64,000 bases of DNA from positions 1,905-65,904 of the forward strand of contig JASLWR010000009.1 in assembly GCA_030740765.1 (NCBI GenBank), in the 5' to 3' direction. Numbering within the stretch: position 1 is the first letter of the stretch; every line of letters begins with the position of its first letter. Of this stretch, positions 3,057 to 23,988 are shown piece after piece. Position numbers and translations under genes: made by a program. Source of the DNA: Thermoplasmatota archaeon (GTDB lineage Archaea; Thermoplasmatota; Penumbrarchaeia; JASLWR01). The notes below the pieces were generated by a model. It was given only the letters and a program-made list of their open reading frames with translations. It did no database searches and was not told the origin of the DNA.

Positions 3057-4085
3057 GTGATCATCCTGATCATTCTGGGACTCATAGCAGTCATTGGACT
3101 GTCATACTGGAATGGAGCCAATGATGTTTCTAAAACTATAGCAACCATAGTAGGCGGGAGAGTAGGCAACTACAAACGAGCAGTAATCTTGGGAGCTACG
3201 TTCAACGCAGTAGGAACATTCTTGGCGTTGTTCTTTGCCCAAACCATCTTCAAAGTCTTCACAGAAGGACTAATTAAAGAAACCAATGTAGGAGAATTAT
3301 TTGCAGCGTCTGTTATCTTAGGAGCAGCAGCATGGATTGTTATAGCCACCAAAACAGGCATGCCCGTTTCAACCACTCACTCCATTCTAGGAGCAATAAT
3401 CTTCCTGGGACTGTTTGTTTTTACCACCGCAGGCATACTTTGGAAGTCAATAGCATTGAAAATAGCGCTTCCATTAATAATATCCCCAATTGTCTCATTC
3501 GTGATGGCATATGGCATATTCTGGCTATATAGCAAGAACTTGCTCTGCCTTAATAATTTAAACGTCAAAATATCAAAAAACATGCGCAAAGTATTGAATA
3601 TTGACAATGCACATTGGATTAGTTGTGCAGCAAGCAGCTTTGCACGTGGCATGAATGATGGGCCAAAATTTGTGGCACTGGCGGCGACGTTTTTGGTAGC
3701 AAATCAATTAACAAACAATGTTCCTGGATTGAATACGATCCTTTTTTCAGTCGTTGCAATAGCTATGGGCTTAGGAGGTTATATCCGTGGCATGAAAGTA
3801 ACCAAAACATTAGCTTATCGCGTCACCAAGATAGGACACAGAGATGGATTTATTGCAAACCTAATAACCTCGGTTTTGGTGACATCTGGAGCAAGCTTGG
3901 GAATGCCTATGTCAACAACGCATGTATCAAGCTTTGCTATTATAGGCATTGGAACGAAAAAAAGCGCAAAAAAAGTAAACTGGAAGACCGTAAAACACAT
4001 GGCACTTGCATGGTTTGTAACACTACCTTTATCAGGACTTTTTTCCATCATCTCTTACAACGTACTACTCGTAGTTGGTCTCTAA
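3057..4085 (+). CDS. PiT-family inorganic phosphate (and arsenate) permease, PHO4 superfamily
   Basis: Duplicated PiT signature (NGANDV...GMPVSTTH and MNDGPK...GMPMSTTH) in a multi-TM protein. Start is GTG immediately after the arsM stop. Confidence 0.85.
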   Translation: MIILIILGLIAVIGLSYWNGANDVSKTIATIVGGRVGNYKRAVILGATFNAVGTFLALFFAQTIFKVFTEGLIKETNVGELFAASVILGAAAWIVIATKTGMPVSTTHSILGAIIFLGLFVFTTAGILWKSIALKIALPLIISPIVSFVMAYGIFWLYSKNLLCLNNLNVKISKNMRKVLNIDNAHWISCAASSFARGMNDGPKFVALAATFLVANQLTNNVPGLNTILFSVVAIAMGLGGYIRGMKVTKTLAYRVTKIGHRDGFIANLITSVLVTSGASLGMPMSTTHVSSFAIIGIGTKKSAKKVNWKTVKHMALAWFVTLPLSGLFSIISYNVLLVVGL

Positions 4086-4363
4086 AATGACATAGGTTAT
4101 TATTTTGTTTTCGGGCACAATGCGGATAGAAGCTAAATAGTCCAAACATTCATCAACCACAAGAACAAAAATCTGGAATTTGTAGGAGAAAGCGGTGGCA
4201 CCAAAATAGCAAATGGAGTAAAAGAACACGAATCATAACTTAGATGAAAGCATAATCTTCAGAGTGTAAATGAAAATTGCCGTTAGCTTAATGTCTCTAA
4301 TTTTCTGAACTTCAGCCTGCCCCATTACTGAGGCTATTATTGAACACTGTAATAAACCTTTCA

Positions 4364-4837
4364 CTAGATCAAGTTCCTCTCGAAAACCCTCCTGTACCAA
4401 CTGACACGAAGGTAGGCCCGAGCCGTATCCTGTTGTGTGGCGGGGAAGGGTGAAACACAGCTCGCATCCGGCAGCAAATAAAACAACTTTGAGTTGTTAC
4501 CAATAGATTTTAATATTTTGAGAGACTCCTCTACAACCTCTCCATTTCCTTTTCCACCATACCATCTTCCATGTCTAAATGTCTCTAACCTATTAAACAA
4601 AACGGATATTTCCGTTTCTCCTTTTTCCCTTAATAGTTTAAATAAACCTGCATGTGTATCATTATGAATCTCATAGACCGATTCCAATTTATATGCAATT
4701 AAATGTTGAATTAAACCATAAATGATTTCCACGATTAGTGCAACGTCTTTATCGTATTCTTTTGTCTCGGATATTTTTTCGAGACTAGCTTTCAGTTCAG
4801 TGGCCTTTTGATAATGTCCTTCAGCTTTCATATTCAT
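4364..4837 (-). CDS. hypothetical protein
   Basis: 157-aa ORF with no confident domain assignment. It lies at the edge of the repeat-rich island. Confidence 0.35.
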   Translation of the reverse strand: MNMKAEGHYQKATELKASLEKISETKEYDKDVALIVEIIYGLIQHLIAYKLESVYEIHNDTHAGLFKLLREKGETEISVLFNRLETFRHGRWYGGKGNGEVVEESLKILKSIGNNSKLFYLLPDASCVSPFPATQQDTARAYLRVSWYRRVFERNLI

Positions 4838-4969
4838 CGAGCTTTCTGTCTCATAGGGACAGAATTTGACATATTTGAAGGTTTCTGTCCAATAATCCCA
4901 GAATGAAATATAATGGAAATCAGGTATTCGATAACAATAATAATCCGCCCAGACTTTTAATCATCAATT

Positions 4970-5148
4970 TCGTATAACGTCTTGCGGATTCCCGAAGTTG
5001 CGTGGGTGGGGAACATCCCTCAGGATTATCTGTCGGCGGAGGAGCAATTTGGGCGGAGGCCGAAGGCCGGGAGCCGAGAACTCGTTAGTTATGCGAGACC
5101 GTTAGGTCCGAGCATTGGGGAGGGGCGGTAGTCCCTCAACGAGCGCAG
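4970..5148. repeat. R1a: ~180-nt structured non-coding repeat element (family R1), starting tcgtataacg and containing gttatgcgag
   Basis: Aligns with 10896-11081 (R1b) at roughly 60-65% identity and with 11325-11400 (R1c). Compensatory hairpin changes are visible: gaccGTTAggtc in R1a versus gcccGATAgggc in R1b. A GGCC-loop-GGCC hairpin (ggccgaaggcc versus ggccgacaggcc) is also conserved. Confidence 0.6.
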
Positions 5149-5238
5149 TTTTGTTGGCAGAGAGTTTCTCCTAATATTACACAAATTGATTGGCGATCAT
5201 TCTATTATCCAACTTAACATCAGGTTGTTTTAGTATCT

Positions 5239-5553
5239 TCATGCAGCCTCAGGATGGACAATTTCAATTAGGATACCTTCCTTTACTTTTTTAAATAACG
5301 CGAGATCATCACTATGAATTCCGGTATTTTTCACTAATTCATTCGGTAAGGTCACCATCAGAGAACTTCCCATCTTTCGCACCTTTCGCACATTTTTTGG
5401 TCTTCTACCCGTAAGGACTTCCCACCTAAGCATTTCATTCGAAGTAAAAAAGGTCTCCTCACATTCATTACATTTCCATCCATTTATTTCTACATCTTCA
5501 CTTATCTCCGAATACTCAGAAATATCTCCATCGCACACGATACACTTTTTCAT
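5239..5553 (-). CDS. Zn-ribbon + AbrB/SpoVT-like (swapped-hairpin) DNA-binding protein; antitoxin-like
   Basis: N-terminal C-x2-C...C-x2-C zinc ribbon, then VRKMGSSLMVTLPNELVKNTGIHSDDLALFKKV, which is typical of AbrB/MazE-like domains. Paralogous to 10112-10420. Confidence 0.6.
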   Translation of the reverse strand: MKKCIVCDGDISEYSEISEDVEINGWKCNECEETFFTSNEMLRWEVLTGRRPKNVRKVRKMGSSLMVTLPNELVKNTGIHSDDLALFKKVKEGILIEIVHPEAA

Positions 5554-5557
5554 TTTA

Positions 5558-5809
5558 TTACCTCCTTCTTAGCTTGATATGGATCAATACCAACTCATCG
5601 ATTGTCTCTGCATATACCAATTCCCAGATTCCATTTTTGGTGGGCATAATGACGATCATTTTCTTTTTCGATTTCTTTTGGTGTACTCCTGATTCAAGGA
5701 TGTCTTCAACAAGGTCCAAATTCTTACGATATTTGTAATAGAGTTCTTCCTTAAAATGACCCGTTTCGATGAGTTCTTTCCCGTTATATATTATCGGTTC
5801 AAACACCAT
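5558..5809 (-). CDS. small hypothetical protein, first gene of a two-gene cassette (possible toxin partner)
   Basis: 83 aa. Related to 10420-10710 (shared G-KEL, ESG/ENGSE, KKxKKK, I-I/VMV, W/YELV/WLIG features). Its start overlaps the stop of the downstream gene, indicating an operon. Confidence 0.5.
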   Translation of the reverse strand: MVFEPIIYNGKELIETGHFKEELYYKYRKNLDLVEDILESGVHQKKSKKKMIVIMPTKNGIWELVYAETIDELVLIHIKLRRR

Positions 5810-5977
5810 TATCTCCTTTATATGTATGTTTTTATATAATAATATAGTTTTTGGTTAGAAAATAGTTCTTTGCGAAAATAATGTCCATATTCGGAAAAAG
5901 TTAAGATATGCCAATCAATTTGTAATTACGTCTTTTCCATATTATTAACCATCAATATTTACTCTCTGTCACAATTT

Positions 5978-6029
5978 CGCATAACTCCCTTATTCGCGAA
6001 TAAAAATTGCAGATAAAGGGAGTTATGCG
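5978..6029. promoter_or_regulatory. R2 copy 1: perfect 14-bp-stem hairpin (CGCATAACTCCCTT ... AAGGGAGTTATGCG) around an AAATTGCAGATAA core; candidate promoter/operator for the minus-strand cassette 5809->5239
   Basis: 56 bp (5981-6036) is identical to 12323-12378. It lies ~180 bp upstream (5') of the minus-strand gene start at 5809. Confidence 0.6.
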
Positions 6030-6279
6030 ATGTTTTCAGAAAGTTTTCACCCAAAAAGACTAAACTAAAAAATTTACAACCCGCGTTAATCCTGCTCACT
6101 CCGCCAATATCCCTTCCGCCTTTCTCACCGCCTTGTCCACCTTCGCAAAGACCCACATCAGTCCAATGACCCTAATTATTTGAATACTACGTGCAAGGAG
6201 AGGAATGCCGCTCAATTGAAAACACACTATCAACAAACGAATACAAACATACATAAAGTATTAAGCGATAGTAAATAAG

Positions 6280-9200
6280 ATGGTTGATAAAGACACACCT
6301 GCTGGCTCCCGTAAGGAGCTTGCTCCTGAGGGTGTCCGCTTTTCTATGCAGACCCCTTTGGGCTCTGCTACACCCTCGCCAAATATGGCTACGGGAGAAG
6401 ATGCATTTCCAATGCATCCGGAGGGTAACGTCCCGAGGATGCAGGTGAATTTCAATTCACCGGAGCAACGCGGGCATCGGAACGCAGTAGACCCGTCTAA
6501 CTTATCAGATGGTAACCTCGCGAGTAAAGTCGGCAAAACCGATTCCTCGTTAACATGGGACTTCAGGTACGAGGACTACGAGAAGTTCTTTCACAGCTAT
6601 CATAACCTGATGAGTTTCAAGATACAGAACATCCTTCTGGTTTCCAGCCCATACGACGCCTTCATACTCAATGAGGACGGCCGACTTTCCGAGCAGATAA
6701 TAGAAGAATATCTGGAACTCGGGCTCTCCTCGGCGCCAAGGCTGTACAGCGTCCCTTCGGGAAAGAGGGCTCTACTGGAATTGAAGAAAAGAAAATACGA
6801 TTTAGTTATTACTATGAGTCAGATATTCGACATCAACCCGGCCGAATTCGGCAGAAGGGCGAAGAAGCTTCGACCGGGGGTTCCCGTTGTACTTCTCGCC
6901 ACCGATAATATCACCGTTGCAAACTATCAGGTTCCCGGAGATCACAGCAGTTTCGACAAGGTCTTCCAATGGCTGGGCGATTCGGCTCTGTTCCTTGCCA
7001 TCATCAAGTATTTCGAGGATATAGGGAACGTCGACAAGGATACCAAGGGAGCAAATGTCAGGGTTATCGTCGTCGTGGAGGATTCGGCAAGATACTATTC
7101 CTCTTTTTTGCCAATAATATATAAAGAGGTAATGCGGCAGACCAAAGCATTGGTCTCTGAAGGCCTGAATGAGCACGAGAAGAGGATTCGGAGACGAAGG
7201 AGACCGAAAATATTGCTGGCCGAGACTTTCAAGGAAGCCTTAAGAGAATACAAAAAATATCACAAGTACATTCTAGGTATCATTACCGACATTTCCTTCC
7301 AGAGGAACGGAAAGAGGTGTATCGACGCGGGATTTAAGTTCGCGGAGAAACTCGACAAAAACATACCCGTTCTCTTCCAATCGTCCGATGAAAAACATTC
7401 CGAGCGCGCGAGGGTAATGCAGCGTCCGTTCCTCAACAAGAACTCACGTACTCTCCTCCGTGATCTGTCGGATTTTCTCACCAAGGAACTGGGATTCGGA
7501 GATTTCATATTCCGCATGCACGATGCCACTGAAATAGGAAGAGCGGCAGATCTGAAGGAGCTGGTCAAGCTCATCAGGGAGGTACCAGCAGAATCGCTCC
7601 GTTTCCACGAGAAGCGATTCCAATTCTCCCGCTGGTTGTTCGCCAGGGGTGAGTTGGACCTCGCAACGAAGATCCGCAAAAAGAAGTTCTCGGATTTTGA
7701 GTCGGTAGACGAAGTAAGAGACTTTCTCATAAACGGGATAGAGAAGACGAGAAAGAAGAGACAGACCGGCATCATAACTGATTTTTCACAGCAGAGCTTT
7801 GAGTTCGAAAGGTCTTTCACACGGTTCGGCAGAGGTTCTCTCGGTGGAAAGGGAAGGGGGATCGCTTTTCTCTCGGCCATGCTCCGCATGAGCAAGATCA
7901 ACAAGATACTGCCCGAGTTCAACATCCGTATCCCCGATACGCTCGTCATTACCACCGAAGAGTTCACCCTCTTCGTCGGGGAGAACGGGCTCGACGAGAT
8001 AGTCCATCTCGATATTTCCGACCGGGATATGGCCCACCGCTTCGTATCGGGATCATTGAGAGATGAGTTGAGGAAAGCTCTATTGAGGTACCTGGAGCAC
8101 GTTAAAGTTCCATTGGCCGTGCGCTCCTCAAGCCTTCTTGAGGACTCCCTTCATCAGCCCTTTGCAGGCATTTATTCGACATATCTGCTGCCTAACAACA
8201 GCGAAAATATTGAAGAGAGAATGGAGCTGCTCTGTTCTGCAATAAAGCTGGTTTACGCCTCGACCTATTTCCACGACGCCAAAACATATATTGAGAGTAC
8301 GTCCCAGAAAGTGGAAGAGGAAAAGATGGGTGTTGTGATACAGAAATTGGTGGGAGATGTTCATGGTGATAGGTTCTATCCTCTGTTCTCGGGGGCGGGG
8401 GTATCACGCAATTATTATCCTCTCCCTCCTCTGAAGCGGGATTCCGGTATTGCCTCTGTTGCCATCGGTCTCGGCAAGATGGTGGTGGACGGCGGTAAGG
8501 TTTTAAGCTTTTCTCCGGAAAATCCAAGGATTTTCCCAGGTTTCTCGACCACCGGGGAAATACTTCAAAATTCACAACGACAATTCTACTGCGTCGATCT
8601 GGCCCGCAGGGATTTTGATCTCACAGAGGGAGAGGATGCGACACTCAGGATTGTGAACATCTCTGACGCTAAAAAGGACGGAATACTTGACCTTACTGCC
8701 AGCGTCTATAACCCGAACGATGATATTATTCGAGATGGACCGTACCACGAGGGACACAAAGTCATAACCTTTGCCGGTATTCTGAAATACGAGAGGTATC
8801 CACTTGCAAATATTCTCCGGAACCTCCTGGAGATAGGTTCCAGAAGTCTTGGCGGTTCTGTGGAGATAGAATTCGCGGTATCGAATGGACGTGATGATCA
8901 ACTGGAGTTCCACATCCTCCAGATACGTCCCATTATATCCAACAAGGAGAAGAGCCTGGTCATGATAAAGGGAGTGGAGGATAATGAGGGGGTTATCGTC
9001 TATTCCGATAAGGCTATGGGCAACGGCTTGATCGATGACATTTCCGACATAGTCATGGTTCTTCCGTCGGAAATGGATAGAAACCAGACCCAATTGATAG
9101 CCCACGAGATCGGCGAGATCAATTCAACAATGAAGAAAGGATCATATCTCCTTCTGGGACCGGGAAGGTGGGGCAGTTTCGATAGATGGCTGGGAATACC

Positions 9201-9507
9201 CGTTAAATGGGGCCAGATATCCCGGGTCGGGGCCATTGTTGAGGCACCCATGCTGGACATTGACGTCACCCAGTCACAGGGTTCTCACTTCTTCCATAAC
9301 ATATCCGCTCTGGGCATACCCTATCTGAGCGTGTCGAGCCGTTCCACCGAAGATAGAATTGACTGGGAATGGTTGGGCAAATTGAAGTTTGAGAAGAAGG
9401 GCCGCTTTGTCAGGCACGCTCACCTTGAAAAACCGTTGATAATCAAGGTCAACGGCAAGGAGGGGAAAGGTATAGTGTTGATAAAGGAAGAATCTAACTC
9501 ATCGTAG
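6280..9507 (+). CDS. PEP/pyruvate-binding (PPDK_N / PEP-synthase N-terminal ATP-grasp) domain protein with an N-terminal receiver-like domain
   Basis: Motifs GRGSLGGKGRGIAFL and LAVRSSSLLEDS match the PPDK_N nucleotide-binding domain. An N-terminal CheY-like alpha/beta region is present (LLVSSPYDAFILNEDG...DLVITM). The true start is probably near 6610 (MSFKIQN), because the first ~80 codons are read through repeat R3. Confidence 0.7.
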   Translation: MVDKDTPAGSRKELAPEGVRFSMQTPLGSATPSPNMATGEDAFPMHPEGNVPRMQVNFNSPEQRGHRNAVDPSNLSDGNLASKVGKTDSSLTWDFRYEDYEKFFHSYHNLMSFKIQNILLVSSPYDAFILNEDGRLSEQIIEEYLELGLSSAPRLYSVPSGKRALLELKKRKYDLVITMSQIFDINPAEFGRRAKKLRPGVPVVLLATDNITVANYQVPGDHSSFDKVFQWLGDSALFLAIIKYFEDIGNVDKDTKGANVRVIVVVEDSARYYSSFLPIIYKEVMRQTKALVSEGLNEHEKRIRRRRRPKILLAETFKEALREYKKYHKYILGIITDISFQRNGKRCIDAGFKFAEKLDKNIPVLFQSSDEKHSERARVMQRPFLNKNSRTLLRDLSDFLTKELGFGDFIFRMHDATEIGRAADLKELVKLIREVPAESLRFHEKRFQFSRWLFARGELDLATKIRKKKFSDFESVDEVRDFLINGIEKTRKKRQTGIITDFSQQSFEFERSFTRFGRGSLGGKGRGIAFLSAMLRMSKINKILPEFNIRIPDTLVITTEEFTLFVGENGLDEIVHLDISDRDMAHRFVSGSLRDELRKALLRYLEHVKVPLAVRSSSLLEDSLHQPFAGIYSTYLLPNNSENIEERMELLCSAIKLVYASTYFHDAKTYIESTSQKVEEEKMGVVIQKLVGDVHGDRFYPLFSGAGVSRNYYPLPPLKRDSGIASVAIGLGKMVVDGGKVLSFSPENPRIFPGFSTTGEILQNSQRQFYCVDLARRDFDLTEGEDATLRIVNISDAKKDGILDLTASVYNPNDDIIRDGPYHEGHKVITFAGILKYERYPLANILRNLLEIGSRSLGGSVEIEFAVSNGRDDQLEFHILQIRPIISNKEKSLVMIKGVEDNEGVIVYSDKAMGNGLIDDISDIVMVLPSEMDRNQTQLIAHEIGEINSTMKKGSYLLLGPGRWGSFDRWLGIPVKWGQISRVGAIVEAPMLDIDVTQSQGSHFFHNISALGIPYLSVSSRSTEDRIDWEWLGKLKFEKKGRFVRHAHLEKPLIIKVNGKEGKGIVLIKEESNSS
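6298..6545. repeat. R3 copy 1: dispersed repeat with an internal GATGCATT(T/C)(T/C)CAATGCATC hairpin, interrupted by two insertions
   Basis: ctgctggctcccgtaaggagcttgctcctgaggg is identical to 17464-17497. gagaagatgcatttccaatgcatc...atcggaacgcagtagacccgtctaacttatcagat matches 17498-17560 with a few substitutions. Confidence 0.7.
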
Positions 9508-9522
9508 TTTTCGGTTAATCCC

Positions 9523-9852
9523 TCATCCGTTTACCGTATCGTATCCGGCCCCTTTCCATTCCACAAAGCTTCCGAAATCATATACTTCCATGAATTTTAA
9601 TTCGTCCATTATTTCCAGGGTCTGACCGCTCCGATTCCCACTTCGACAGTAAATAATATATGTACCGTTCTTGTCCAGTTTATTTAGCTCGTCCCTGAAT
9701 GTCTCGCCATAGAAATCGATATTGATGGAATTTACCAATCGATCATCTCCGAACTCGTTCGAGGTCCTGACGTCCAGGATAATTAAATCGGAATTTACCC
9801 TTATCATTTCATTGGCATCGTCTATCGATATTTTCTCGATGATCGGACCCAT
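9523..9852 (-). CDS. single-domain rhodanese-like sulfurtransferase
   Basis: Rhodanese fold motifs (ILDVRTSNEF...YCRSGNRS) with an active-site Cys in a CRxGxR loop. A possible N-terminal TM extension exists in frame upstream, but without an ATG. Confidence 0.75.
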   Translation of the reverse strand: MGPIIEKISIDDANEMIRVNSDLIILDVRTSNEFGDDRLVNSINIDFYGETFRDELNKLDKNGTYIIYCRSGNRSGQTLEIMDELKFMEVYDFGSFVEWKGAGYDTVNG

Positions 9853-10111
9853 TTCATTTTGATTTTTTTCGGTATCTTCCTCGTTTAGAAGGACATACGA
9901 AACTGCACCGAGAGCGATACCGACCAGGACTGCGATGAAAAAAGTTAAACTTTCGGCTTAAAAGCATAGCACGATTCTGACATTTTAACCTCAATCCTGC
10001 ATTTCCAACCCTGTGGAAATTCCAAGTATTTAGGAGGATTTACATTCAAATTTTAGAGAGAATGAAGTTCCAGATATTGAGTTTCGATAATTGGTTCGGA
10101 TTCAAATTGAC

Positions 10112-10420
10112 TTATTGTAAGACTTTCAATCTGATCTCTTTTGTCTTGGCTTCAATGATGACCTTAGAATACGGATTCAGATGATAGAGGTCCGCAATAG
10201 GTTTTGGGATCCTCACAGCCAAACTATTCCCCGTTTTGAACAGAGATAACTCTTTGCGCTTCTTCATATATCTGAAGAATTTTACGATAACATCAACATC
10301 ATCCGAATTGCTATGAGTATTACCGCATTCACAGCGCCAACCCCGTATCTTGAAACCTTTTAAATCGACATCATCAACTTCTGTCATTTCTTTATCGCAG
10401 ATATTGCACTTGTGAGCCAT
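10112..10420 (-). CDS. Zn-ribbon + AbrB/SpoVT-like DNA-binding protein (paralog of 5239-5553)
   Basis: CNICDK...WRCECGNT zinc ribbon followed by an LFKTGNSLAVRIPKPIADLY swapped-hairpin-like segment. ATGA overlap with the upstream gene. Confidence 0.6.
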   Translation of the reverse strand: MAHKCNICDKEMTEVDDVDLKGFKIRGWRCECGNTHSNSDDVDVIVKFFRYMKKRKELSLFKTGNSLAVRIPKPIADLYHLNPYSKVIIEAKTKEIRLKVLQ

Positions 10421-10710
10421 TATTTCCCTCCTCTCAAGATTTTCATTTTATCTTTGGTTGCTTTAATCTTCCCCACATGTCCGATCAACCAATATTCGAC
10501 ACGATCTTCAACCATGACGATTAGGATGTGTTTTCCTCTATGACACCATTTTTCAGTAAATCCCTTTTTCCGTTTCTTGACTTCACTTCCGTTCTCCATT
10601 ACCCATATCACATCATCTATGGTGATATCACACTCTAACATCTCCTTATCGGCATTCCGATAGTTATCCACTACAAGTTCTTTACCCTTCCATGTCTGCG
10701 TTGGAACCAC
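10420..10710 (-). CDS. small hypothetical protein (paralog of 5558-5809), first gene of the cassette
   Basis: 96 aa. Same gene order and 4-nt overlap as the 5.2-5.8 kb cassette. Confidence 0.5.
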   Translation of the reverse strand: MVPTQTWKGKELVVDNYRNADKEMLECDITIDDVIWVMENGSEVKKRKKGFTEKWCHRGKHILIVMVEDRVEYWLIGHVGKIKATKDKMKILRGGK

Positions 10711-10895
10711 TCCAAAGGATTATATATATTAATATCATGCATAATATATATTATTTTCTATGAAATGTAAAAAAGCATGATGTGATTTTCTTCTGGAACT
10801 TCATTATCGACTATTCGTTCTGTAGTTATTCTTCGATTTTCATTCTATGTGGAAATCCTCCTAATTGAATATTTCCACCGAGCGATTCTGGTATT

Positions 10896-11081
10896 ACGTA
10901 TAACGATTGGCAGGTTCACGAACTTCCGTCGGGGGAAACAATTCATTGGTATCGGTATTGGCGGGGTAGGAATTTGGGTGGAGGCCGACAGGCCGAGAGC
11001 CTGAAACCGGCTAGTTATACGAGCCCGATAGGGCCAAGAATTCGTGGTTGGAAAGGGGGTTAATTGGGGGAGAATTCACAG
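10896..11081. repeat. R1b: ~185-nt structured repeat (family R1), starting acgtataacg and containing gttatacgag
   Basis: See R1a for the alignment and compensatory changes. Confidence 0.6.
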
Positions 11082-11324
11082 TTTATCAGAATCGCCGAAA
11101 AATGCCTTCGGGACGTAGCTTTCCGTTGGCGAAGGCCAGCAGGAAAATTTCGGAAAACATGCCTTATACTAAAACGTAGTTTTAATCCCTATCCCTTTTT
11201 CTTGGTCCGGTTTCCGAAGTAGCGGAGGAATTATTTTTCGATCTTACCTTATGGTAGCTTAAAGTTCTTTGTTCATATGATTTTCTCCATGAATAAAGTC
11301 ATGGGGAAATTCCGATTTACGACT

Positions 11325-11400
11325 GCCACAAGTTATCCGAGGGCGTTAGCTCCGAGCATTGTAGGGGGATAGTTCCCTACAAGCGCAGAGTTCCCGACCA
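11325..11400. repeat. R1c: partial copy (3' two-thirds) of the R1 element
   Basis: caagttatccgagggcgttagctccgagcattgtagggggatagttccctacaagcgcag aligns with gttatgcgagaccgttaggtccgagcattggggaggggcggtagtccctcaacgagcgcag in R1a. Confidence 0.55.
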
Positions 11401-11443
11401 TCTTGCTTTCCTGGGGTTAGGCTAATTGAATAATACAATATAT

Positions 11444-11875
11444 TTAAAGTTCTGGCACTTTTTCATACCCTATTTTAGAAAAGTCGCTATCAAAAGTAAA
11501 TATATAGTTGATACCATATTTTTTCATATATGTCACAATACTCCAATCAACGAAGGAAAGTTTAGTTTTTCTTTCTTCAATATTTTCCCAGATATTTAAA
11601 AAATTTAGAGAATTAAATGGATGAATGATTACATTTGATTGCAATATTCTTCCCATAATATCCATTGCTGCTCTATAATTGTAATTGTACAATAAAAAAG
11701 TATAGGTTTCTTGTAGAACCAACTCTGATGTATGTATGGGTCCAAAATTTAGTTCACCGTTTTTATTTTTCTCTATGAATGATCTTGCTTTTTTATGGTG
11801 GATGTCTTTTTTCTCATTTAATGCCACCCAAGCACTGGTATCTATAAAAATAGGTGGATATTTTATTCTTCCCAT
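11444..11875 (-). CDS. vapC: PIN-domain ribonuclease toxin
   Basis: IFIDTSAWVAL N-terminal acidic motif and FVDWSIV...IFTFDSDF C-terminal acidic residues. The ORF-track start (11935) is probably too long; MGRIKYPPIFIDTS fits a VapC start. Confidence 0.75.
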   Translation of the reverse strand: MGRIKYPPIFIDTSAWVALNEKKDIHHKKARSFIEKNKNGELNFGPIHTSELVLQETYTFLLYNYNYRAAMDIMGRILQSNVIIHPFNSLNFLNIWENIEERKTKLSFVDWSIVTYMKKYGINYIFTFDSDFSKIGYEKVPEL

Positions 11876-11876
11876 A

Positions 11877-12131
11877 CTACGACATCCCATACACAATATC
11901 ATCCACAGTAGCTTCCCTCTTCTTAGGTTCATCACTTCGAGGTTCTAAGCCGAAACAAGAGGCACCCCAATCCACCTTTTTCTTTTTTATCTCCCCATCC
12001 AAGAGTTCTCTTAAAAGAGCCGAGACGGTGATTCCCTTCTCTTCTACAATACTTCTTATCGTCTCAACTTGTTCCTCTGGAAACTTTGTACTCAACACTA
12101 CTTCTGCCATAAGTATACCTACGTCTACCAT
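11877..12131 (-). CDS. vapB: ribbon-helix-helix/CopG-like antitoxin
   Basis: 84-aa ORF immediately upstream of vapC and overlapping it, with an RHH-like region ITVSALLRELL. Exact start uncertain. Confidence 0.55.
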   Translation of the reverse strand: MVDVGILMAEVVLSTKFPEEQVETIRSIVEEKGITVSALLRELLDGEIKKKKVDWGASCFGLEPRSDEPKKREATVDDIVYGMS

Positions 12132-12319
12132 TCTATATATAACTTTCCTTCGGACTTAAAGATTATTTTATTAGGGAGAGGGAGAATGACAACTTATCGC
12201 CTAACCACAAAAGTCAATTATATTTTGTGATGGTCGGGGATTTCGCATACCTACTCGTGAATTGATATGAAAGATCTTGAAACTTTCGGCGTTTAAACCA
12301 TAGGACGATTCCGATATTT

Positions 12320-12371
12320 CGTATAACTCCCTTATTCGCGAATAAAAATTGCAGATAAAGGGAGTTATGCG
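12320..12371. promoter_or_regulatory. R2 copy 2: the same 14-bp-stem hairpin (CGTATAACTCCCTT ... AAGGGAGTTATGCG), ~190 bp upstream of the vapBC operon start
   Basis: 12323-12378 is identical to 5981-6036. Both copies sit 5' of minus-strand TA-like operons. Confidence 0.6.
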
Positions 12372-12515
12372 ATGTTTTTACGAAAAGTCTTTCTCGTGAG
12401 GATCCCGTCGACGTAATCGATAACCCCATTATCGGTGTACAACGCCACTATCCACCGCAAAGCCGTTATTTCTTCAGTTCCGCACCACACGCCCTCAAGT
12501 GAAACTCCTCGCTCT

Positions 12516-13727
12516 TTACTGGACCCCGAGCAGGTCCGCCATGCCGATCACATCAATGCCATCAATACTTTTCTGGGGCTTTCTAGCAACCATAATTCTC
12601 TTTTTCACTTTTCGGCTTTTAACGGCCTTAATATTTTTGATGTCGTTATCTACTATTGAGTCAAGATATTTGATCTCATAGGCAGTTCCCTTAACGAGAA
12701 AATCCACCTCTTTACCTCCTTGCTCCAAGTAAGTTACCTCCCCTTTTTTCCTGAGAGCAAGATACATTAAATTCTCAGCCAGAGCCCCCTTTGCAATACC
12801 ACCGCTAATAATGCTGAGAATCCCATTGTCACATACATATACCTTTTTTGGAGAATAGATACGTTCGTTGGGAGTACCTTCTTTTAAAACAATGTCTATA
12901 AGGAATGCCTCCTGAAAAAGGTTAAGGTAGTTCGTTACCGTCTCTCTTGAAAGTCCCAGTACCCTTGAAAGTTTTGAGGCCGTCAAGCGTCTTCCGGCTC
13001 TCTGGCATATAAGGTAAAACATTTTTTTCATAAGGACAGGGGTCTGAATATTGCATCTGGGTACAATATCCTTGTAAATGATGTCCTCAACCACATCTTC
13101 TATATATTGCGGATCATCGGTGAGCACGTATTCCGGCATTCCCCCCGTCACCATGAAATCCTCGATGTACTGTCCCAACAGATATCCTTCAGATGGGTTT
13201 ATATCCAGTGATCTGAACTGAATATACTCGTGAAAGTTCAAGGGATCAACATTCATCCTCGCATTGCGTCCCACCAGATGACCGCTCCTGTGTTTTATTA
13301 TCAAACTGTTTGAGCCGGTGGCAATGATAAAGAGATTGGGCTCCAGATCATAAAGCACTTTCAATTCTTTTTCGAAGCCCTCCCTTGCATGAACCTCATC
13401 GAAGAGGATATAGGCCTGTTGTTCCCTGCCAATTCGGAATATGCTTCGATATTCATCCACAACATTCAAAAGAGACATCTCTGAAATGGCGGGGTGGTCA
13501 ACTGATATGAAAAAAATATTGGAAGCATCAGTATCTTTCAGCTTTTCAGCAACAAACTGCTTCATTATAGTGGTCTTGCCACAGCGCCTAAGGCCGTATA
13601 CAAATACCAATCGTCGAGTAGAAAGTTTTTCATCCAATTCCTTTAGATAAGATGTCCGTTTCACACCCGGGAACTTGAACTCGCCCTCCCACCATGGATT
13701 ATATCTGTAGAGCAGTTCCTTGTTCAT
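12516..13727 (-). CDS. archaeal-type AAA+ ATPase (COG1373/DUF4143 family)
   Basis: Walker A GLRRCGKTT, Walker B ILFDEVH and a DUF4143-like C-terminal half. The internal start MNKELLYRY (13727) is preferred over 13778, because both AAATTGCA(G/C)ATA motifs (13770, 13802) then lie upstream. Confidence 0.75.
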   Translation of the reverse strand: MNKELLYRYNPWWEGEFKFPGVKRTSYLKELDEKLSTRRLVFVYGLRRCGKTTIMKQFVAEKLKDTDASNIFFISVDHPAISEMSLLNVVDEYRSIFRIGREQQAYILFDEVHAREGFEKELKVLYDLEPNLFIIATGSNSLIIKHRSGHLVGRNARMNVDPLNFHEYIQFRSLDINPSEGYLLGQYIEDFMVTGGMPEYVLTDDPQYIEDVVEDIIYKDIVPRCNIQTPVLMKKMFYLICQRAGRRLTASKLSRVLGLSRETVTNYLNLFQEAFLIDIVLKEGTPNERIYSPKKVYVCDNGILSIISGGIAKGALAENLMYLALRKKGEVTYLEQGGKEVDFLVKGTAYEIKYLDSIVDNDIKNIKAVKSRKVKKRIMVARKPQKSIDGIDVIGMADLLGVQ

Positions 13728-13769
13728 ATACAAATAATCTCCCTTCATCTTTAAATAATTTGCTAATGA

Positions 13770-13813
13770 AAATTGCACATATTGTCAAAAAGCGCTAATA
13801 GAAATTGCAGATA
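13770..13813. promoter_or_regulatory. two tandem AAATTGCA(C/G)ATA motifs (13770-13781, 13802-13813), the same core as in R2, upstream of the AAA ATPase
   Basis: The core AAATTGCAGATAA is shared with 6005-6017 and 12347-12359. On the coding (minus) strand it reads TTATCTGCAATTT followed by A/T-rich sequence, consistent with an archaeal BRE/TATA-like promoter. Confidence 0.45.
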
Positions 13814-15885: not shown

Positions 15886-16852
15886 CTCCTTTCCCGTTCT
15901 CGTTTTTTTCGGAAACCGAGCTCAGGAAAATATCCTCTAGCGATACGTCCCGCTTTTTAAAAGACATCATAATGGCCTTTGATTTATAGACAATTTCGGT
16001 AACCGCTTCCTCGAGAACATCGTCCTTCTCCGAAACCACCTGTATCCGATTTTCATCGTCGATCCAAGCACGCTTGACATATCGAAGCCGCTTCAATCTT
16101 TCCAATATCAGCTCATTTTTGGACGTTTCCAGAAGAAAATGATTCCCGGCCAGCTGGTCTTTGATAACACCAACATCGTCCGAGAGGATTATCTCTCCCT
16201 TGTTTATGATGGTAACTGTATCGGCCAGTTTTTCAACTTCCCCAAGGATGTGGCTGCTGACGAGGACTGTAAGTCCACGGTCACGGACAAGTTCCAATAT
16301 GTGCTCGATCATACCAGCACGTCCCACGGGATCGAGATTTGCAGTGGGCTCGTCCAGGATGAGTATCTCCGGCTCGTGTATCAGTGCTTGCGCTAGGGCC
16401 GCCTTCTGTTTCATTCCCGAGCTGTAGTTGTTTACTTTACGGTCCGCCGCTTCCTCCAGCTTCAGCCAGAGTATCAGCTCTTCGGCCTTTTTTGCTGCCT
16501 CCGCTTTGCCCAGGTGCCCGAGCCTTCCCATGTAGATCAGATATTTGAAAAGTGTCATATCAAAGAACTTGGGCTGCTCCGACACGTATCCAATGAGCGA
16601 GTTCGCCTTGACCGAACCAGCTTTATATCCCTTTATTGTAGCAGTGCCCTGGGTAATGCTCAAACCCCCAACCAGCATCTTTATAGTTGTGGTCTTTCCG
16701 GCGCCGTTGGGACCCAGGAAGCCGTGGGCCTGTCCGGCCCGGACTTTGAAATCGATACCGTTCACGGCCTTGACGATATTGGCCCCGCCGCCGAAATGTT
16801 TTGTAAGGTCCTTAACCTCTATCATGGGGACGCTCATTCTTCCACCTCCCAT
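15869..16852 (-). CDS. ABC transporter ATP-binding protein (ABC-2 / CcmA-like)
   Basis: Walker A GPNGAGKTT, signature YSSGMKQKAALAQAL, Walker B ILILDEPTANLD, H-loop VSSHIL. Confidence 0.85.
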   Translation of the reverse strand: MGGGRMSVPMIEVKDLTKHFGGGANIVKAVNGIDFKVRAGQAHGFLGPNGAGKTTTIKMLVGGLSITQGTATIKGYKAGSVKANSLIGYVSEQPKFFDMTLFKYLIYMGRLGHLGKAEAAKKAEELILWLKLEEAADRKVNNYSSGMKQKAALAQALIHEPEILILDEPTANLDPVGRAGMIEHILELVRDRGLTVLVSSHILGEVEKLADTVTIINKGEIILSDDVGVIKDQLAGNHFLLETSKNELILERLKRLRYVKRAWIDDENRIQVVSEKDDVLEEAVTEIVYKSKAIMMSFKKRDVSLEDIFLSSVSEKNENGKGGASHE

Positions 16853-19800
16853 GGCTCATCCTCTTCCCCATGAACTGTCGAGGATTCCACCCTTCCCCCT
16901 TTCTTGTTCAGAATATCTTCCTCGATCTCTTCTATCTTTTTTTCCCGCTTCTCGATTTCCAGCTCGATCTCTTCCAACTTTTCTTCTGCCTTGTCGAGCT
17001 CTTCTTCAGCATCTTCGATATCGTACTTCACGTCTTGCAGATACTTGTATACGTTGGCATTCGGGTTTGGCCGCCTGCCCTTTGCACCACACTTTTTGCA
17101 GTGAAGATGTAGTTTTTCCTCGTCGGTTTCCGGCAGTTTCACCTTTGCACCACATTCAGGGCAATTCATACTTTTCCGTATGTCAGCCTCTATCTCCTTC
17201 TTCTCTTTCAGGAAAGCATCCAGCACATCTTCCTTAACTTTCTTGTCTTTTTTTAGACTCTCAAATTGAAGCCCTGTTTCTTCAAGTTCTTTTGTCAGTT
17301 CATCGGCACTGGTTTCCAGCACCAATATCTCTTCGTCGAACTTTTTCACATCGGGGTCAAATGAAGATTTATCCTTTTTCTTTCGATCCCGTCTTCTCCC
17401 CTTCCTTTTTGATCGTCCTTTCTCTTCAGTTCTTTTTTCGGACTTATCAAGTAAAGGCGACCCTGCTGGCTCCCGTAAGGAGCTTGCTCCTGAGGGAGAA
17501 GATGCATTTTCAATGCATCGGAACGCAGTGGACTCGCCTAACTTGTCAGATAGTGACCTTACAAGTGAAGTCTTCAATGCTTCTATCTTTATCCTTTTCT
17601 CTCTCCACTGTTGTGTGCTCTTCTTCAATTTGGCTTGTCTCATTACTATAATCACAATAATAAATATGACCAGGATCACACCTACGGCGATATTGAGGAT
17701 CATAGGTGTATTGGATTCCGGGACATTGACGGTAATGGAGTCGGCAAGGATACTCCCAAACTCATCGGTGGTCTCCACTATGATCTCATGCTGGCCACCG
17801 CTCAAGGTGAGGGTGAGCTCCCCGCCGGTATACTGACCAAAACTGATACCGTCCACAAAGACCTCGCACTCTACGGCCTTCAGGTTCCATGTCAGCTCAA
17901 ATTCATCGTCCAGTATCTCATCATTTCCAGGAGATAGTATGAATAGACTGTAGGAGCCGTCCAGGCAGTACAAACTGTTCCCTTGTGAGATCAGGATATC
18001 TGCCTTTCCATCGGTGTTGACATCCCCGTTATCTTCCGCCACCGCATATCCTATGGGAATCTGTCGCAGCAACGTACCTGTTTCCGGATCCACCACTTCC
18101 AATACGAAGACCTCCGCGCCATCGATCTGGGCGGTCCTCTGTACCATCATATCCCTGATCCCATCGCCGGATACATCACTTAAGACCGAGACACCGAAAA
18201 CAGGCTGTGCCATGTTCCAATCGGTAAATTCCGTTTGTTCTTCGTATTGGATAACATTAAGCTGTTCTCCGGTCTTTCCATCCAAGATATGGATGTCGGC
18301 ACCCAGGGCTCCCCATCGCCCGGAACCAACGGCTATATCAGCTGTTCCGTCTCCGTTTGTATCTTCAATGATCTTCAAAGGATTGCCGCCGCTGAATGCA
18401 AAAGAAAAAATCTCAGTATTTACCCAAATCTCCTGGTGGGTTTGTCCGTCGATTGCCATTATTTGTGGAGGTGCCCTCTTGCCCCCGGTTTTTTTGAAGA
18501 GCAGGGCATCCTTGACCCCGTCGCCATTTAGGTCCTGGAGGAAAGGCCCTTCCTCAGGGTGTTCTCCCGGAGCAAAATTGTCCATGGGCTGGTTTCCCGC
18601 CCCTACGGAAAATCCCGGACCAAGGGCGCTGCCGTCCAGGCCGCTCAGGACATGGCATTCATGCTGCTCTTCGTTTTTATCATCACCAGGAACAACCGAG
18701 AAATACATCACATCCGATCTGCCGTCCCCATTGAGGTCCTCAATTAGCGCGAAACTGCCGGATAATACCTCATCATTGTCCGGACTGCTAAGGTTCTCGG
18801 GATATCTCCAGGAGAAGTTTGCCGACATACTGCCGTTTGCAGATATGTTTGAAAAGTATATCAGTGATGAATAATCGGTTATCAGTAAACCTGGTTGAGC
18901 ATCATCCCCCACAGCGAATGTCTGTGGATACCATGGCAGCCAGCTGATATTATTCTGGGTCATGTTCCACAATTGCGAGCCGTCCGCCCCGTCCAGAAGG
19001 TAGACGTTGCCGCCCTGACCCCCCACGAAGATATCGGGAATTCCGTCACCGCTGAGATCGGAACCCGGTTCCAATGACGCAATCCTTCGGTTTACCAAAT
19101 TCCAATATTCATAGAGGCCTTGAGATGCATTTAGGGAAGAATTGAAAAAGAGCTGAGAGCTTACGGGAGCCTCCCATGCCAGGCTGCCGTCGGCTCCGTC
19201 TATGACGAACACGAATGTATGATTTCCCATCTCCAGAAGGTCATCCGGCACGTCGCTTTGCCGATAGGCCAGGATGTCGATCTTTCCGTCACCGGTAAAG
19301 TCGCTTTCCATGCTGATGTCCCTGGCACCCTTGGTCGGGAGATCGGCGAGAGATACGGTATGTTTCCAGAGCTCTTCGCCGGTGACTCGGTCGACGGCCT
19401 GGAGGGTCCTTACATGAGAATTTGAGCCCAGGGAAGAAAGGATCACAAGGTCTCCGGCCCCGTCGTCGGTAATGTCCGAGATGTCCTGCACCTCCACACT
19501 TTCCATGTTGTTCACATCCCACAGGACTTCCTGGGCCAGGGGATCCACCACCAGAAGGCCAGACGTTCCAAGAGTCAATATCATCAACTGACCCTGGGAA
19601 CCGTCGGGATTGTTAAAGAATTCAAGCTGAAAATTCCCCAGCCAGGCATTATCGAGGATGGGATGATCGAAAAAAGGTTCAAGTTCCTTGGTTTCGGTAT
19701 CCACCAATTTGATCTCATTCTTATGCGGTATAACAAGAGAATAATTGCCATTGCCGTTCCAGTTCACCAAAGCTTCGGTTGACCATAAAACCGGAATATC

Positions 19801-21087
19801 AATTGCGTCCGTACCTGTGGTGTTGAACAGTATGTTTTCCTGGTCCAGCTCAACGATCTCATCATTATCCTCCGGATCTGTTTTTCCACCGGGATCTCTG
19901 TCCTTTCCCTGCCTGGTCCTGACACCGGTAAGGGAAGACGATATGATCTTGGCGGTCCCGCTATAATCCCTGTTAATACCCATGACCAGGATGTCCCGGA
20001 GCCCGTCGCCGTCGAAATCTTCAATGGTCTTTATGCGCGGGTTGAAAAAGTTTAATGGATGATCAATACCTGACTGTATCCCGACATTATTCTCCATATC
20101 AACATTCGGCTGGTTCTGAAGAGTGATCTTCTTCGACCAGATAATTACCCCTCCATCCCCGCTCATCAATGTAATGAAACCGTCTTCCGAACTTACCACC
20201 ACGTCCGGGACATTATCACTGTTAACATCCTCAATGGTCAGGATTGACCAAAGAGAGAGGTCGATCTTGATGTCCACCGTTTCGCCTTCGTCCCCTTTGC
20301 TTTTAGGGTCCAAATCAATGACCTTTTCATATATCTCTGTGAGGTCATGTCCCCAGACCTCGTTCCCAGTCTCGCCGTTTAAAAGATGTATGTCGCCGTC
20401 CTGTGAACCTGCCAGCACATCGTTCTTATTATCGCCAGTCACGTCCGCGGCTGCCACCACGTTCCAGATATCGTTACCGCCCGTAAATGTCCACAGGACA
20501 TCTCCATTCTCTCCCGACAGGCGATAGACCATTTTCCATGAGCTCACGATCACATCCTTTCCACTGCCTGAGGGAATGGAGGCGGCGCACCATGAGATGG
20601 TTTCCGCATCGATTAGACCATCTTCCTCGGTAAAGGCATCCATTATGGGCTTGAATTCCCAGAGTTTTCCCCCTGTTTCGGTGCTCACTGCGATCACGTT
20701 GGGCGTTTGCTGGTTCCTGGTGGTAATAACAAAATCGGTTCGGCCGCCACTGTCAATATCACCGATATCGGTAATTGATATAACTGAATCCAGGGTGGTG
20801 TAACGCGTATACACCTCACCTGTGAGAAGGTCTATGGCCATTGCACCGCCGTCCGTCCCAACTAATACGGTGTTTGGAGTGCCGGCATTTGTCTGATCCA
20901 CCAGCTTTATTTCAGTAGTTATTCCCCCGGTCATGCCTCCGATGGTCTGCCATAGCACGCTGCCCCGTCCAGCGTCTCCCTGGGTTTCAGGGCCGACATT
21001 GGAATTCTGGGCCGGGATAGTAATAACCAATGCAGATGTCATCAGTAAAATAATCAAAAGTATTGGACTTATCATGTGTCGTTCCAT
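16834..21087 (-). CDS. giant (1417 aa) cell-surface PQQ-like/FG-GAP beta-propeller repeat protein with a C-terminal TM anchor and a cytoplasmic coiled-coil + Zn-ribbon tail
   Basis: N-terminal signal/TM, many repeats of the D-x-D/N-GDG-x-D-(I/V/L) and GxxLW/DGS(L/V)WE types, a TM helix (ILNIAVGVILVIFIIVIIV), then a KE-rich coiled coil and CPECGAK...CKKCGAK. Repeat R3 is embedded in-frame in the tail. Confidence 0.75.
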   Translation of the reverse strand: MERHMISPILLIILLMTSALVITIPAQNSNVGPETQGDAGRGSVLWQTIGGMTGGITTEIKLVDQTNAGTPNTVLVGTDGGAMAIDLLTGEVYTRYTTLDSVISITDIGDIDSGGRTDFVITTRNQQTPNVIAVSTETGGKLWEFKPIMDAFTEEDGLIDAETISWCAASIPSGSGKDVIVSSWKMVYRLSGENGDVLWTFTGGNDIWNVVAAADVTGDNKNDVLAGSQDGDIHLLNGETGNEVWGHDLTEIYEKVIDLDPKSKGDEGETVDIKIDLSLWSILTIEDVNSDNVPDVVVSSEDGFITLMSGDGGVIIWSKKITLQNQPNVDMENNVGIQSGIDHPLNFFNPRIKTIEDFDGDGLRDILVMGINRDYSGTAKIISSSLTGVRTRQGKDRDPGGKTDPEDNDEIVELDQENILFNTTGTDAIDIPVLWSTEALVNWNGNGNYSLVIPHKNEIKLVDTETKELEPFFDHPILDNAWLGNFQLEFFNNPDGSQGQLMILTLGTSGLLVVDPLAQEVLWDVNNMESVEVQDISDITDDGAGDLVILSSLGSNSHVRTLQAVDRVTGEELWKHTVSLADLPTKGARDISMESDFTGDGKIDILAYRQSDVPDDLLEMGNHTFVFVIDGADGSLAWEAPVSSQLFFNSSLNASQGLYEYWNLVNRRIASLEPGSDLSGDGIPDIFVGGQGGNVYLLDGADGSQLWNMTQNNISWLPWYPQTFAVGDDAQPGLLITDYSSLIYFSNISANGSMSANFSWRYPENLSSPDNDEVLSGSFALIEDLNGDGRSDVMYFSVVPGDDKNEEQHECHVLSGLDGSALGPGFSVGAGNQPMDNFAPGEHPEEGPFLQDLNGDGVKDALLFKKTGGKRAPPQIMAIDGQTHQEIWVNTEIFSFAFSGGNPLKIIEDTNGDGTADIAVGSGRWGALGADIHILDGKTGEQLNVIQYEEQTEFTDWNMAQPVFGVSVLSDVSGDGIRDMMVQRTAQIDGAEVFVLEVVDPETGTLLRQIPIGYAVAEDNGDVNTDGKADILISQGNSLYCLDGSYSLFILSPGNDEILDDEFELTWNLKAVECEVFVDGISFGQYTGGELTLTLSGGQHEIIVETTDEFGSILADSITVNVPESNTPMILNIAVGVILVIFIIVIIVMRQAKLKKSTQQWREKRIKIEALKTSLVRSLSDKLGESTAFRCIENASSPSGASSLREPAGSPLLDKSEKRTEEKGRSKRKGRRRDRKKKDKSSFDPDVKKFDEEILVLETSADELTKELEETGLQFESLKKDKKVKEDVLDAFLKEKKEIEADIRKSMNCPECGAKVKLPETDEEKLHLHCKKCGAKGRRPNPNANVYKYLQDVKYDIEDAEEELDKAEEKLEEIELEIEKREKKIEEIEEDILNKKGGRVESSTVHGEEDEPWEVEE
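17464..17572. repeat. R3 copy 2 (compact copy), embedded in-frame within the 3' region of the giant minus-strand gene
   Basis: See R3 copy 1. The same element supplies SGASSLREPAG to both antisense-frame ORFs (6261-6536 and the giant ORF). Confidence 0.7.
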
Positions 21088-23790: not shown

Positions 23791-23988
23791 CACATCCTTT
23801 TTTAAATTGCCTATGGACGGACTATATCACAGTGTGTTTACATAATAATACTGGAAGGCATTTCTTACAATTATTTAAGAATAACGAACCAGTAGCACTA
23901 CTTGAATCAATCATTCCTCTCCTATATTTGATAGCTCTGGATGCACTCGGTCAAGATATGAAAGAAAGGTGGATCAAGAATTAAATGA

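Follow-up and report, generated by a model that had tools for sequence, protein, structure and literature searches.

The 64-kb stretch analysed here (the window), from contig JASLWR010000009.1, has the wider context of an archaeal chromosome, with geranylgeranyl reductase, polyprenyl synthase and UbiA genes, and its exact protein matches are named Candidatus Thermoplasmatota archaeon. Our subject is a cluster of repeated non-coding elements between 4.9 and 12.4 kb. These comprise R1, present as two ~200-nucleotide (nt) elements on the '+' strand (R1a and R1b) and a partial third copy (R1c), and a short repeat, R2 (5974-6036), whose second copy R2' (12316-12378) is 98% identical to it (repeat family D8). 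The R1 elements are GC-rich and the surrounding spacers AT-rich. Neighbouring genes lie mostly on the '-' strand and include small open reading frames (ORFs) without a Pfam match, a MazE/AbrB-like gene, a PIN toxin gene and an AAA_14/DUF4143 ATPase gene. The initial annotation had described R1a, R1b and R1c as a family of structured non-coding elements that lie 3' of toxin-antitoxin-like cassettes and have ends in common with R2, and on both counts the description was borne out.

Pairwise alignment recovered the three R1 copies as one alignable family at the coordinates given beforehand, with blastn identities of 72.5% over 153 nt (R1a and R1b) and 79% over 62 nt (R1a and R1c). The R1a-R1b alignment contains 1-nt indels, and a coding reading of R1 was therefore set aside. 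Both R1a and R1b open with ATT(T/A)CGTATAAC, and GTTAT(G/A)CG (GTTATGCG or GTTATACG) follows 117 nt downstream (Table 1), in agreement with the R2 half-site and the reverse complement ~120 nt further on that had been proposed for R1. The hairpins quoted for the R1 copies are also present (hpA in Table 1), including the one of the form GGCC-GAA/GACA-GGCC. R2 and R2' end in CG(C/T)ATAAC...GTTATGCG, closing a perfect 15-bp hairpin, and R2 is a near-perfect palindrome (DNA fold z = -6.5). The sole difference between R2 and R2' is the variable base of this closing helix, C in R2 and T in R2'. Taken alone, the 9-mer CGTATAACG shows no enrichment in the window (11 matches, 8.7 expected).

Pattern scanning of one genome per species found the R1 family in one other genome, the uncultured archaeon metagenome-assembled genome (MAG) CAYFHS01. 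A scan of metagenome contigs matched five and in this way added three related contigs, and the viral contigs scanned gave 0 R1 matches; in the very large collections scanned, the family is thus narrow, confined to one other genome and to metagenome contigs few in number. The contigs that belong to the window's own species (L001-L006, L010 and L013) are 99.5-100% identical and hold no variation within R1. Two CAYFHS01 loci, L008 and L009, overlap by 55 nt and jointly carry nine full or short R1 copies, all in one orientation ('+') with start-to-start distances of 1.16-1.93 kb; L007, on the same contig, has two more, and further R1 arrays are found in the metagenome contigs L011 and L014. The window sites, at 4971, 5978, 10897 and 12320, also have the same orientation, with one gap of 4.9 kb; we defined an array by a minimum of two same-orientation sites, separated by less than 4 kb, with short ORFs in the intervals. 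The related contigs have almost only the R1 copies in common, and the DNA between the copies differs, except for one cassette common to L009 and L011. The cassette products are PIN, ParE, MazE/AbrB, RHH/UPF0175 and HEPN-like/MNT proteins and those of unknown small ORFs, encoded mostly on the strand opposite to R1.

Because three copies are too few for covariation statistics, we assembled 17 copies from the window and the related loci, and their MAFFT alignment (A4) served as the basis of a consensus fold and a covariance model. Twelve of the 31 pairs in the consensus fold have compensatory changes. The paired cells amount to 95.4% as observed, compared with 86.2% when shuffled and 21.6-45.7% in slid controls, and the covariation score is 0.296, a value reached in 0 of 500 shuffles (0.128 when shuffled, 0.045-0.074 in slid controls). 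The covarying stems of the initial annotation are thus statistically supported. Run on the 64 kb, the model found only R1b (168 bits), R1a (149.5), R1c (34.4, with 103 model positions deleted), R2' (22.8, E ~1e-5) and R2 (13.4, E = 0.004), all five in one 7.5-kb cluster. The fold opens with P1 (the R box), an 8-bp closing helix, CGYATAAC/GTTATRCG, that is almost invariant in sequence. The loop inside it has 5 nt on the 5' arm and 2 nt on the 3' arm and leads to P2, the equivalent of the L box, a 10-bp helix broken only by a 1x1 mismatch, with compensatory changes at five of its ten pairs. A three-way junction follows, formed with the GGCC-GACA-GGCC hairpin and the 7-bp P3 (three of seven pairs compensatory), which closes a variable domain deleted in three short copies. 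Just 3' of P1 is the 4-bp hairpin hpA, GNNC-GNTA-GNNG, one position of which is CG in seven copies, UA in six, GC in three and AU in one; beyond it come hpB, a conserved GCAGTTT and a 10-14-nt arm, X'. A nearly invariant P1 with the remainder (P2, P3 and hpA) covarying matches the pattern of attC recombination sites, where the R box is conserved and the rest is kept in structure only.

Neighbouring sites turned out to be linked in sequence. The 5' strand of P1 is perfectly complementary to the P1 3' strand of the previous site in 14 of 16 cases and to that of its own site in 7 of 18. The variable position, Y in CGYATAAC, has its Watson-Crick partner in the previous site, not in its own, with nine informative cases for the former and one for the latter (p = 0.02). 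Thus the variable C of R2 pairs with the G of R1a's GTTATGCG and the T of R2' with the A of R1b's GTTATACG, and in L007 a double change, CGCCTAAC, stands opposite the end of the preceding site, GTTAGGCG. The flanks behave in the same way: the tail X' of a site is the reverse complement of an arm, X, that lies just 5' of the ATTTCG of the next site. Complementarity between tail and next flank averages 10.7 nt, compared with 6.9 +/- 1.9 nt in 293 non-adjacent controls (Mann-Whitney p = 3e-7). A site's own flank and own tail are complementary over 7.2 nt, the level of the controls, with two exceptions, R1b (11 nt) and one MAG copy (10 nt). In the window, X' of R1a is complementary to the R2 flank at 5961-5974 and X' of R1b to the R2' flank at 12306-12316, at 10 of 11 positions. 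R2 has only P1 in common with R1, yet follows the same linkage rules.

In integrons, the bases that come after G↓TT of a site (↓, point of exchange) are part of the following cassette, whose own inverse core they pair with. Linkage of the variable base and the flank to the previous site is what an integron-type crossover inside ATAAC/GTTAT predicts, whereas an RNA gene or a miniature inverted-repeat transposable element (MITE) gives no reason for it. From the two linkages it follows that a cassette is a unit with matching sequence at both ends and a point of exchange inside the conserved core, somewhere from the variable base to the opposite P1 strand. One other placement was considered and rejected, a crossover at GCAG↓TTT beside X', with P0, the helix formed by X and X', as the true R box; it predicts that Y pairs within its own site, and is contradicted nine to one.

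The R1 ends also resemble known sites. Cassette arrays of integrons have been reported in 75 archaeal MAGs, including those of Thermoplasmatota, mostly without an integrase and rich in toxin-antitoxin cassettes, and attC sites recombined by IntI1 include GTATAAC...GTTATAC from Hadarchaeota and GCATAAC...GTTATGT from Hydrothermarchaeota (Ghaly et al., 2022, PMC9668308, Data S10). The end boxes of R1 match the R boxes of these published, experimentally active archaeal sites. Every one of the 17 full copies, like R2 and R2', has GYATAAC and GTTATRC. With complementary RYYYAAC...GTTRRRY at the site ends as the box definition, the R1 boxes are one position off the RYYYAAC consensus, but identical boxes are known from published archaeal attC sites that are functional. 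The '+' strand of R1 has up to 13 nt identical to published bottom strands (CATAACGCCTTGC, GTATAACGACTG), with a mean identity of 9.7 nt to bottom strands and 7.7 nt to top strands (p = 0.004). Between the boxes, R1a (4971-5095) and R1b (10897-11021) measure 125 nt each and R2 (5978-6029) measures 52 nt; the attC length range that we used was roughly 57-141 nt.

Several observations bear on the strand and the molecule that fold. G-U/G-T wobbles outnumber A-C mismatches on the '+' strand (~30 and 11), and the single-stranded DNA fold energy is lower on '+' than on '-' in 12 of 13 sites. Together with the location of most genes on '-' and the identity to published bottom strands, these observations lead us to infer that '+' is the folding, bottom strand, antisense to most cassette genes, which makes ATAA↓C at the 5' end of each site the likely point of cleavage. 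When rebuilt as they would be in a circular cassette, 9 of 13 sites fold better than in their native arrangement. Selection most likely acts on the structure of single-stranded DNA; the earlier claim of selection on structure therefore stands for intrastrand pairing and probably not for RNA as the structured molecule.

Collectively, these data support the interpretation, to which we assign a probability of about 0.78, that R1 and the shorter, related R2 are of the attC type: structure-specific recombination sites that lie between the mobile gene cassettes of an integron-like array in a Candidatus Thermoplasmatota chromosome. On this interpretation the R2 hairpins are minimal sites of the same kind as R1, and the region from 4.9 to 12.4 kb is a cluster of attC-like sites lacking an adjacent integrase (CALIN), with four working-looking sites and one decayed site and with cassettes that are mainly toxin-antitoxin pairs. 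A tyrosine recombinase of the integron-integrase type, encoded elsewhere, would make its cut within ATAA↓C of the folded strand, equivalent to G↓TT of the coding strand. A cassette would therefore have X with ATTTCGYATAA at one end and, at the other, the core, tail and X' that belong to it. In the excised circle, X and X' (helix P0) and a perfectly matched P1 would meet and clamp the site, favouring folding and re-insertion, and P0 would be able to form locally only in the circular cassette.

A number of results pull the other way. Pfam searches found no recombinase or transposase domain in the 40 window ORFs scanned and no integrase or recombinase in the 20 ORFs of L007-L009, L011 and L014 (~31 kb of related loci); these searches covered the window and the related loci, not the rest of these genomes, and no lineage-wide integrase search was made. 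A complete integron would have, beside its array, an attI site and an integrase, that being a tyrosine recombinase with the IntI-specific extra domain. The interval from R2 to R1b is not a clean cassette, being the sole adjacent pair in the window to fail both linkage tests, and cassette genes are not uniformly co-oriented. The data bracket the crossover to within the site without fixing the base, and the cut P1 strand is assigned from indirect arguments, the linkage data alone being silent on it. For R1a or R1b by itself, neither the DNA nor the RNA fold energy is better than that of shuffles (z from -0.2 to -1.9; ~0 for R1 as DNA), so that the structural support comes only from the comparative data, and with all related sequences supplied by a narrow lineage, the compensatory events do not amount to many independent changes. 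R1 has 5/2 spacers and no conserved bulged (extrahelical) bases in P2, whereas the folds of nine published sites have spacers of ~7/7 and a bulge; the R2 stem is uninterrupted over its 15 bp. The 5/2 asymmetry could serve the same role as the canonical spacer and extrahelical bases. Finally, a small covariance model built from nine published attC bottom strands, which is weak and penalises long inserts, gave no R1 match; with it R2 scored 11.5 bits (E 2.5) and R2' 9.5 bits (E 8.6).

Some of these results would fit a site that departs further from known forms. We regard it as rather doubtful, though worth stating, that R1 is a distinct, elaborated site of ~190-200 nt, in which an attC-like core is joined by two extra hairpins and a cassette-specific clamp helix formed only in the excised circle, without canonical bulges and possibly with a non-classical recombinase. 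In that case the clamp would tip a cassette towards folding and re-insertion in a manner not described before, and current attC models would overlook such arrays or call them only in part. Less likely still is an attC-like function within a separate, lineage-specific cassette system, whose recombinase would be other than an integron integrase, for example another archaeal tyrosine recombinase or an HUH-type single-strand enzyme, with P0, hpA and hpB as part of recognition. The extra conserved hairpins and the clamp helix outside the R box, the non-canonical spacers without bulged bases, the missing integron integrase in the window and related loci, the failure of the published-attC model on R1 and the restriction of the family to so few genomes and contigs would all suit such a system. 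However, the R boxes and the adjacent spacer are identical to those of attC sites recombined by IntI1, the conserved ATAAC/GTTAT triplet around which the crossover is bracketed is the same, an adjacent integrase is likewise missing from most archaeal and from many bacterial arrays, and the model that misses R1 is the weak one of nine sequences.

We consider it very improbable that R1 is a structured non-coding RNA (cis-regulatory, antitoxin-like or a small RNA gene) made from the '+' strand, with the covariation reflecting RNA folding. Structured small RNAs and type I or III antitoxin RNAs resemble R1 in being non-coding, in lying beside toxin-antitoxin genes and in having covarying stems, and the significant compensatory changes, the excess of G-U pairs over A-C mismatches on '+' and the GC-rich composition within AT-rich spacers are all in line with such an RNA. 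Yet the same element flanks unrelated cassettes, and the pairing of variable P1 bases and flanks with the neighbouring copy, not the own one, has no explanation at the RNA level; the same is true of the regular same-orientation arrays with strain-variable cassettes, of the identity of the end boxes to those of functional attC sites, and of R2, which follows the linkage rules with only P1 in common. The fold z-scores are weak, Rfam scans over 4800-6300 and 10700-12500, at gathering thresholds or E <= 10, returned no relevant family, in keeping with the lack of rRNA, tRNA, SRP or RNase P features reported at the outset, and a tRNA/tmRNA scan found no such genes. The cis-regulatory or antitoxin-like RNA offered by the initial annotation is therefore not supported, in view of the arrays, the previous-site linkage and the attC box identity.

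The other suggestion made there, a MITE-like element, which we widen to miniature non-autonomous elements of the MITE-like type or palindrome-associated and moved by an IS200/IS605-type single-strand transposase, accumulated in intergenic spacers, has just as slim a chance: the family is indeed short, repeated, non-coding, structured and lineage-specific, CGYATAAC...GTTATRCG resembles terminal inverted repeats, R2 is nearly palindromic, R1b has an own flank and tail that match (11 of 12 nt) and internally deleted and decayed copies exist, but the array copies keep one strict orientation at every cassette boundary, the elements have no terminal repeats of their own (own flank and tail being at the control level), the flanks pair across the gene cassette as cassette-specific inverted repeats that are not transposase-type targets, no transposase is present among the Pfam-scanned ORFs of the window or related loci, the 64 kb hold only five copies in a single cluster, and viral contigs have none.

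Reading R1 and R2 as attC-type sites, we list the sites and the intervals between them in Table 1.

Table 1. Proposed sites, cassettes and associated genes between 4.9 and 12.4 kb of the window
Feature	Coordinates	Strand	Details
R1a, long attC-like site on the folding (bottom) strand	4958..5170	+	Covariance-model match 149.5 bits at 4958-5125; P1 5' strand CGTATAAC 4971-4978; branched core; P1 3' strand GTTATGCG 5088-5095; hpA (GACC-GTTA-GGTC) 5097-5108; hpB ~5115-5139; GCAGTTT 5145-5151; cassette-specific arm X' 5151-5165
Cassette body R1a-R2	5166..5960	-	Genes 5558-5809 (83 amino acids, aa) and 5239-5553 (104 aa), no Pfam match
R2, short attC-like site	5961..6036	+	Flank X 5961-5974; P1 5' strand CGCATAAC 5978-5985; 15-bp perfect stem; P1 3' strand GTTATGCG 6022-6029
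R2-R1b interval	6037..10882	mixed	PPDK_N-like 6280-9507 (+); rhodanese 9523-9852 (-); MazE/AbrB-like 10112-10420 (-); 96-aa gene 10420-10710 (-)
R1b, long attC-like site	10883..11096	+	Covariance-model match 168 bits; flank GCGATTCTGGTA; P1 5' strand CGTATAAC 10897-10904; P1 3' strand GTTATACG 11014-11021; hpA (GCCC-GATA-GGGC) 11023-11034; CAGTTT from 11079; X' TATCAGAATCGCC 11084-11096
Conserved extension 3' of R1b, then R1c	11097..11400	+	Extension 11097 to ~11290; R1c 11300-11400, a degenerate R1 with an internal deletion, in which a decayed P1 5' strand, GTTATCCG, hpA, hpB and GCAGAGTT are left; extension and R1c together 77% identical to L008 6077-6446
Toxin-antitoxin genes, R1b/R1c to R2'	11444..12131	-	PIN-domain toxin 11444-11935 (Pfam PIN 2.6e-15); 84-aa upstream partner 11877-12131
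R2', short attC-like site	12306..12378	+	Flank X CGATTCCGATA 12306-12316; P1 5' strand CGTATAAC 12320-12327; P1 3' strand GTTATGCG 12364-12371

The interval from R1a to R2 is bracketed by the inverted repeat TTGTTGGCAGAGAGT (5151-5165) and ACTCTCTGTCACAA (5961-5974), and by their arrangement its two genes (5239-5809) are toxin-antitoxin-like. About half of all sites are followed by a conserved extension of ~170-200 nt, in which GTTATGCG recurs 123-152 nt beyond its first occurrence. Instances, given as the positions of the first and second GTTATGCG, are 199/347, 1453/1577 and 4547/4699 in L008, 164/287 and 1326/1458 in L009, 981/1113 and 2786/2911 in L011 and 2288/2414 in L014; that of the window lies at 11097-11290. 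One subgroup of extensions also carries a degenerate copy of the R1 5' arm. The extension may be a decayed site or an alternative box, and the one 3' of R1b, like R1c, is probably a decayed site.

We also noted features of the genes at and near the sites. Close to R1a there is a strain polymorphism at 4501 (window 4085-4501 compared with L001 11053-11636): three contigs of the same species, L001, L002 and L004, keep an intact pair of genes for a HEPN-like protein (119-121 aa) and a nucleotidyltransferase (MNT) downstream of R1a, and the window, L003 and L006 have an unrelated, partly GC-rich sequence leftwards from 4501, which results in a 157-aa hybrid ORF (4364-4837). Adjoining R2, an antisense ORF at 6261-6536 (-) overlaps the PPDK_N-like ORF (6280-9507, +) over the first ~85 codons of the latter. 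The product of the antisense ORF (…STAFRCPRCSG…ASSLREPAG…) has a paralogous counterpart in C-terminal residues ~1170-1211 of a 1417-aa FG-GAP protein encoded at 16834-21087 (-), and at the DNA level it has two blocks of 81-91% identity with the region 17452-17577. The antisense ORF resembles a gene fragment, and the PPDK_N gene may in fact begin further downstream. Genes for 'archaeal ATPases' are found within or at the edge of the site cluster in both species, AAA_14/DUF4143 in the window (12516-13778, -) and ATPase_2/DUF234 with an Mrr-like end in L007 (6447-7961, +), and may themselves be cassettes.

Further along the window, a 12-nt tandem repeat at 21384-21462 lies inside the ORF 21112-21873 (-), where the coding strand gives a short repeated acidic and glycine-rich stretch. 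Paralogous short minus-strand ORFs at 23669-25194 (68-73% DNA identity; spacings of 700, 542 and 248 nt) have no Pfam match and no R1 or R2 sites between them. Two ORFs, 46083-48503 (+) and 52461-55106 (-), each contain four tandem repeats of 276-294 nt with 61-73% identity (46806-47764 and 53498-54395), consistent with Ig-like or adhesin domains in surface proteins.

If R1 and R2 are attC-type sites, as we favour, integron-type cassette arrays made up mostly of toxin-antitoxin modules can be placed in a marine Thermoplasmatota chromosome. A full-text literature search on Thermoplasmatota and integrons found no paper describing these arrays. Two linkage signatures, the variable R-box base and the cassette-specific inverted repeat of 10-14 nt, mark the cassette boundaries without the need for an integrase or a curated attC model. 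The case also illustrates that covariation arising from folded single-stranded DNA can pass for an RNA gene in a genome scan. Should the clamp helix and the hairpins be functional, they would widen the range of attC forms and provide a testable handle on the folding and re-insertion of excised cassettes.

Among known systems, the Vibrio cholerae repeats (VCRs) of sedentary chromosomal integrons are long sites, with ~125 nt between R boxes, that are highly similar within a genome. The integrons of this type have large arrays rich in toxin-antitoxin cassettes, some of them reversed, and decayed sites and cassettes occur. R1 is like the VCRs in its long sites, its similarity within a genome, its toxin-antitoxin-rich arrays and its decayed sites. 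It is unlike them in its archaeal host, in having no integrase or attI in view, in a branched interior instead of one long imperfect hairpin, and in the additional hpA, hpB and P0.

A second comparison is with the archaeal attC sites and CALINs (Ghaly et al., 2022, PMC9668308). R1 differs from them in its asymmetric spacers of 5 and 2 nt without conserved bulged bases, in the three-way junction of its interior, and in the two extra hairpins and the cassette-specific clamp helix of 10-14 bp outside the R box, which bring the unit to ~190-200 nt. Like R1, however, they are tandem, same-orientation structured sites 1-2 kb apart with short ORFs between them, mostly unknown or toxin-antitoxin, and no adjacent integrase, and Thermoplasmatota are among the phyla already reported. 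The tested Hadarchaeota and Hydrothermarchaeota sites have R boxes, GYATAAC/GTTATRC, and a bottom-strand spacer (GTATAACGACTG, ATAACGCCTTGC) identical to those of R1. In both, the crossover falls, by the junction signature, in the region of the conserved GTT/AAC, and sites are more alike within a lineage than across lineages. The R1 arrays are thus best explained as a kind of system already known in Archaea, of which R1 is a long, elaborated, lineage-specific version.

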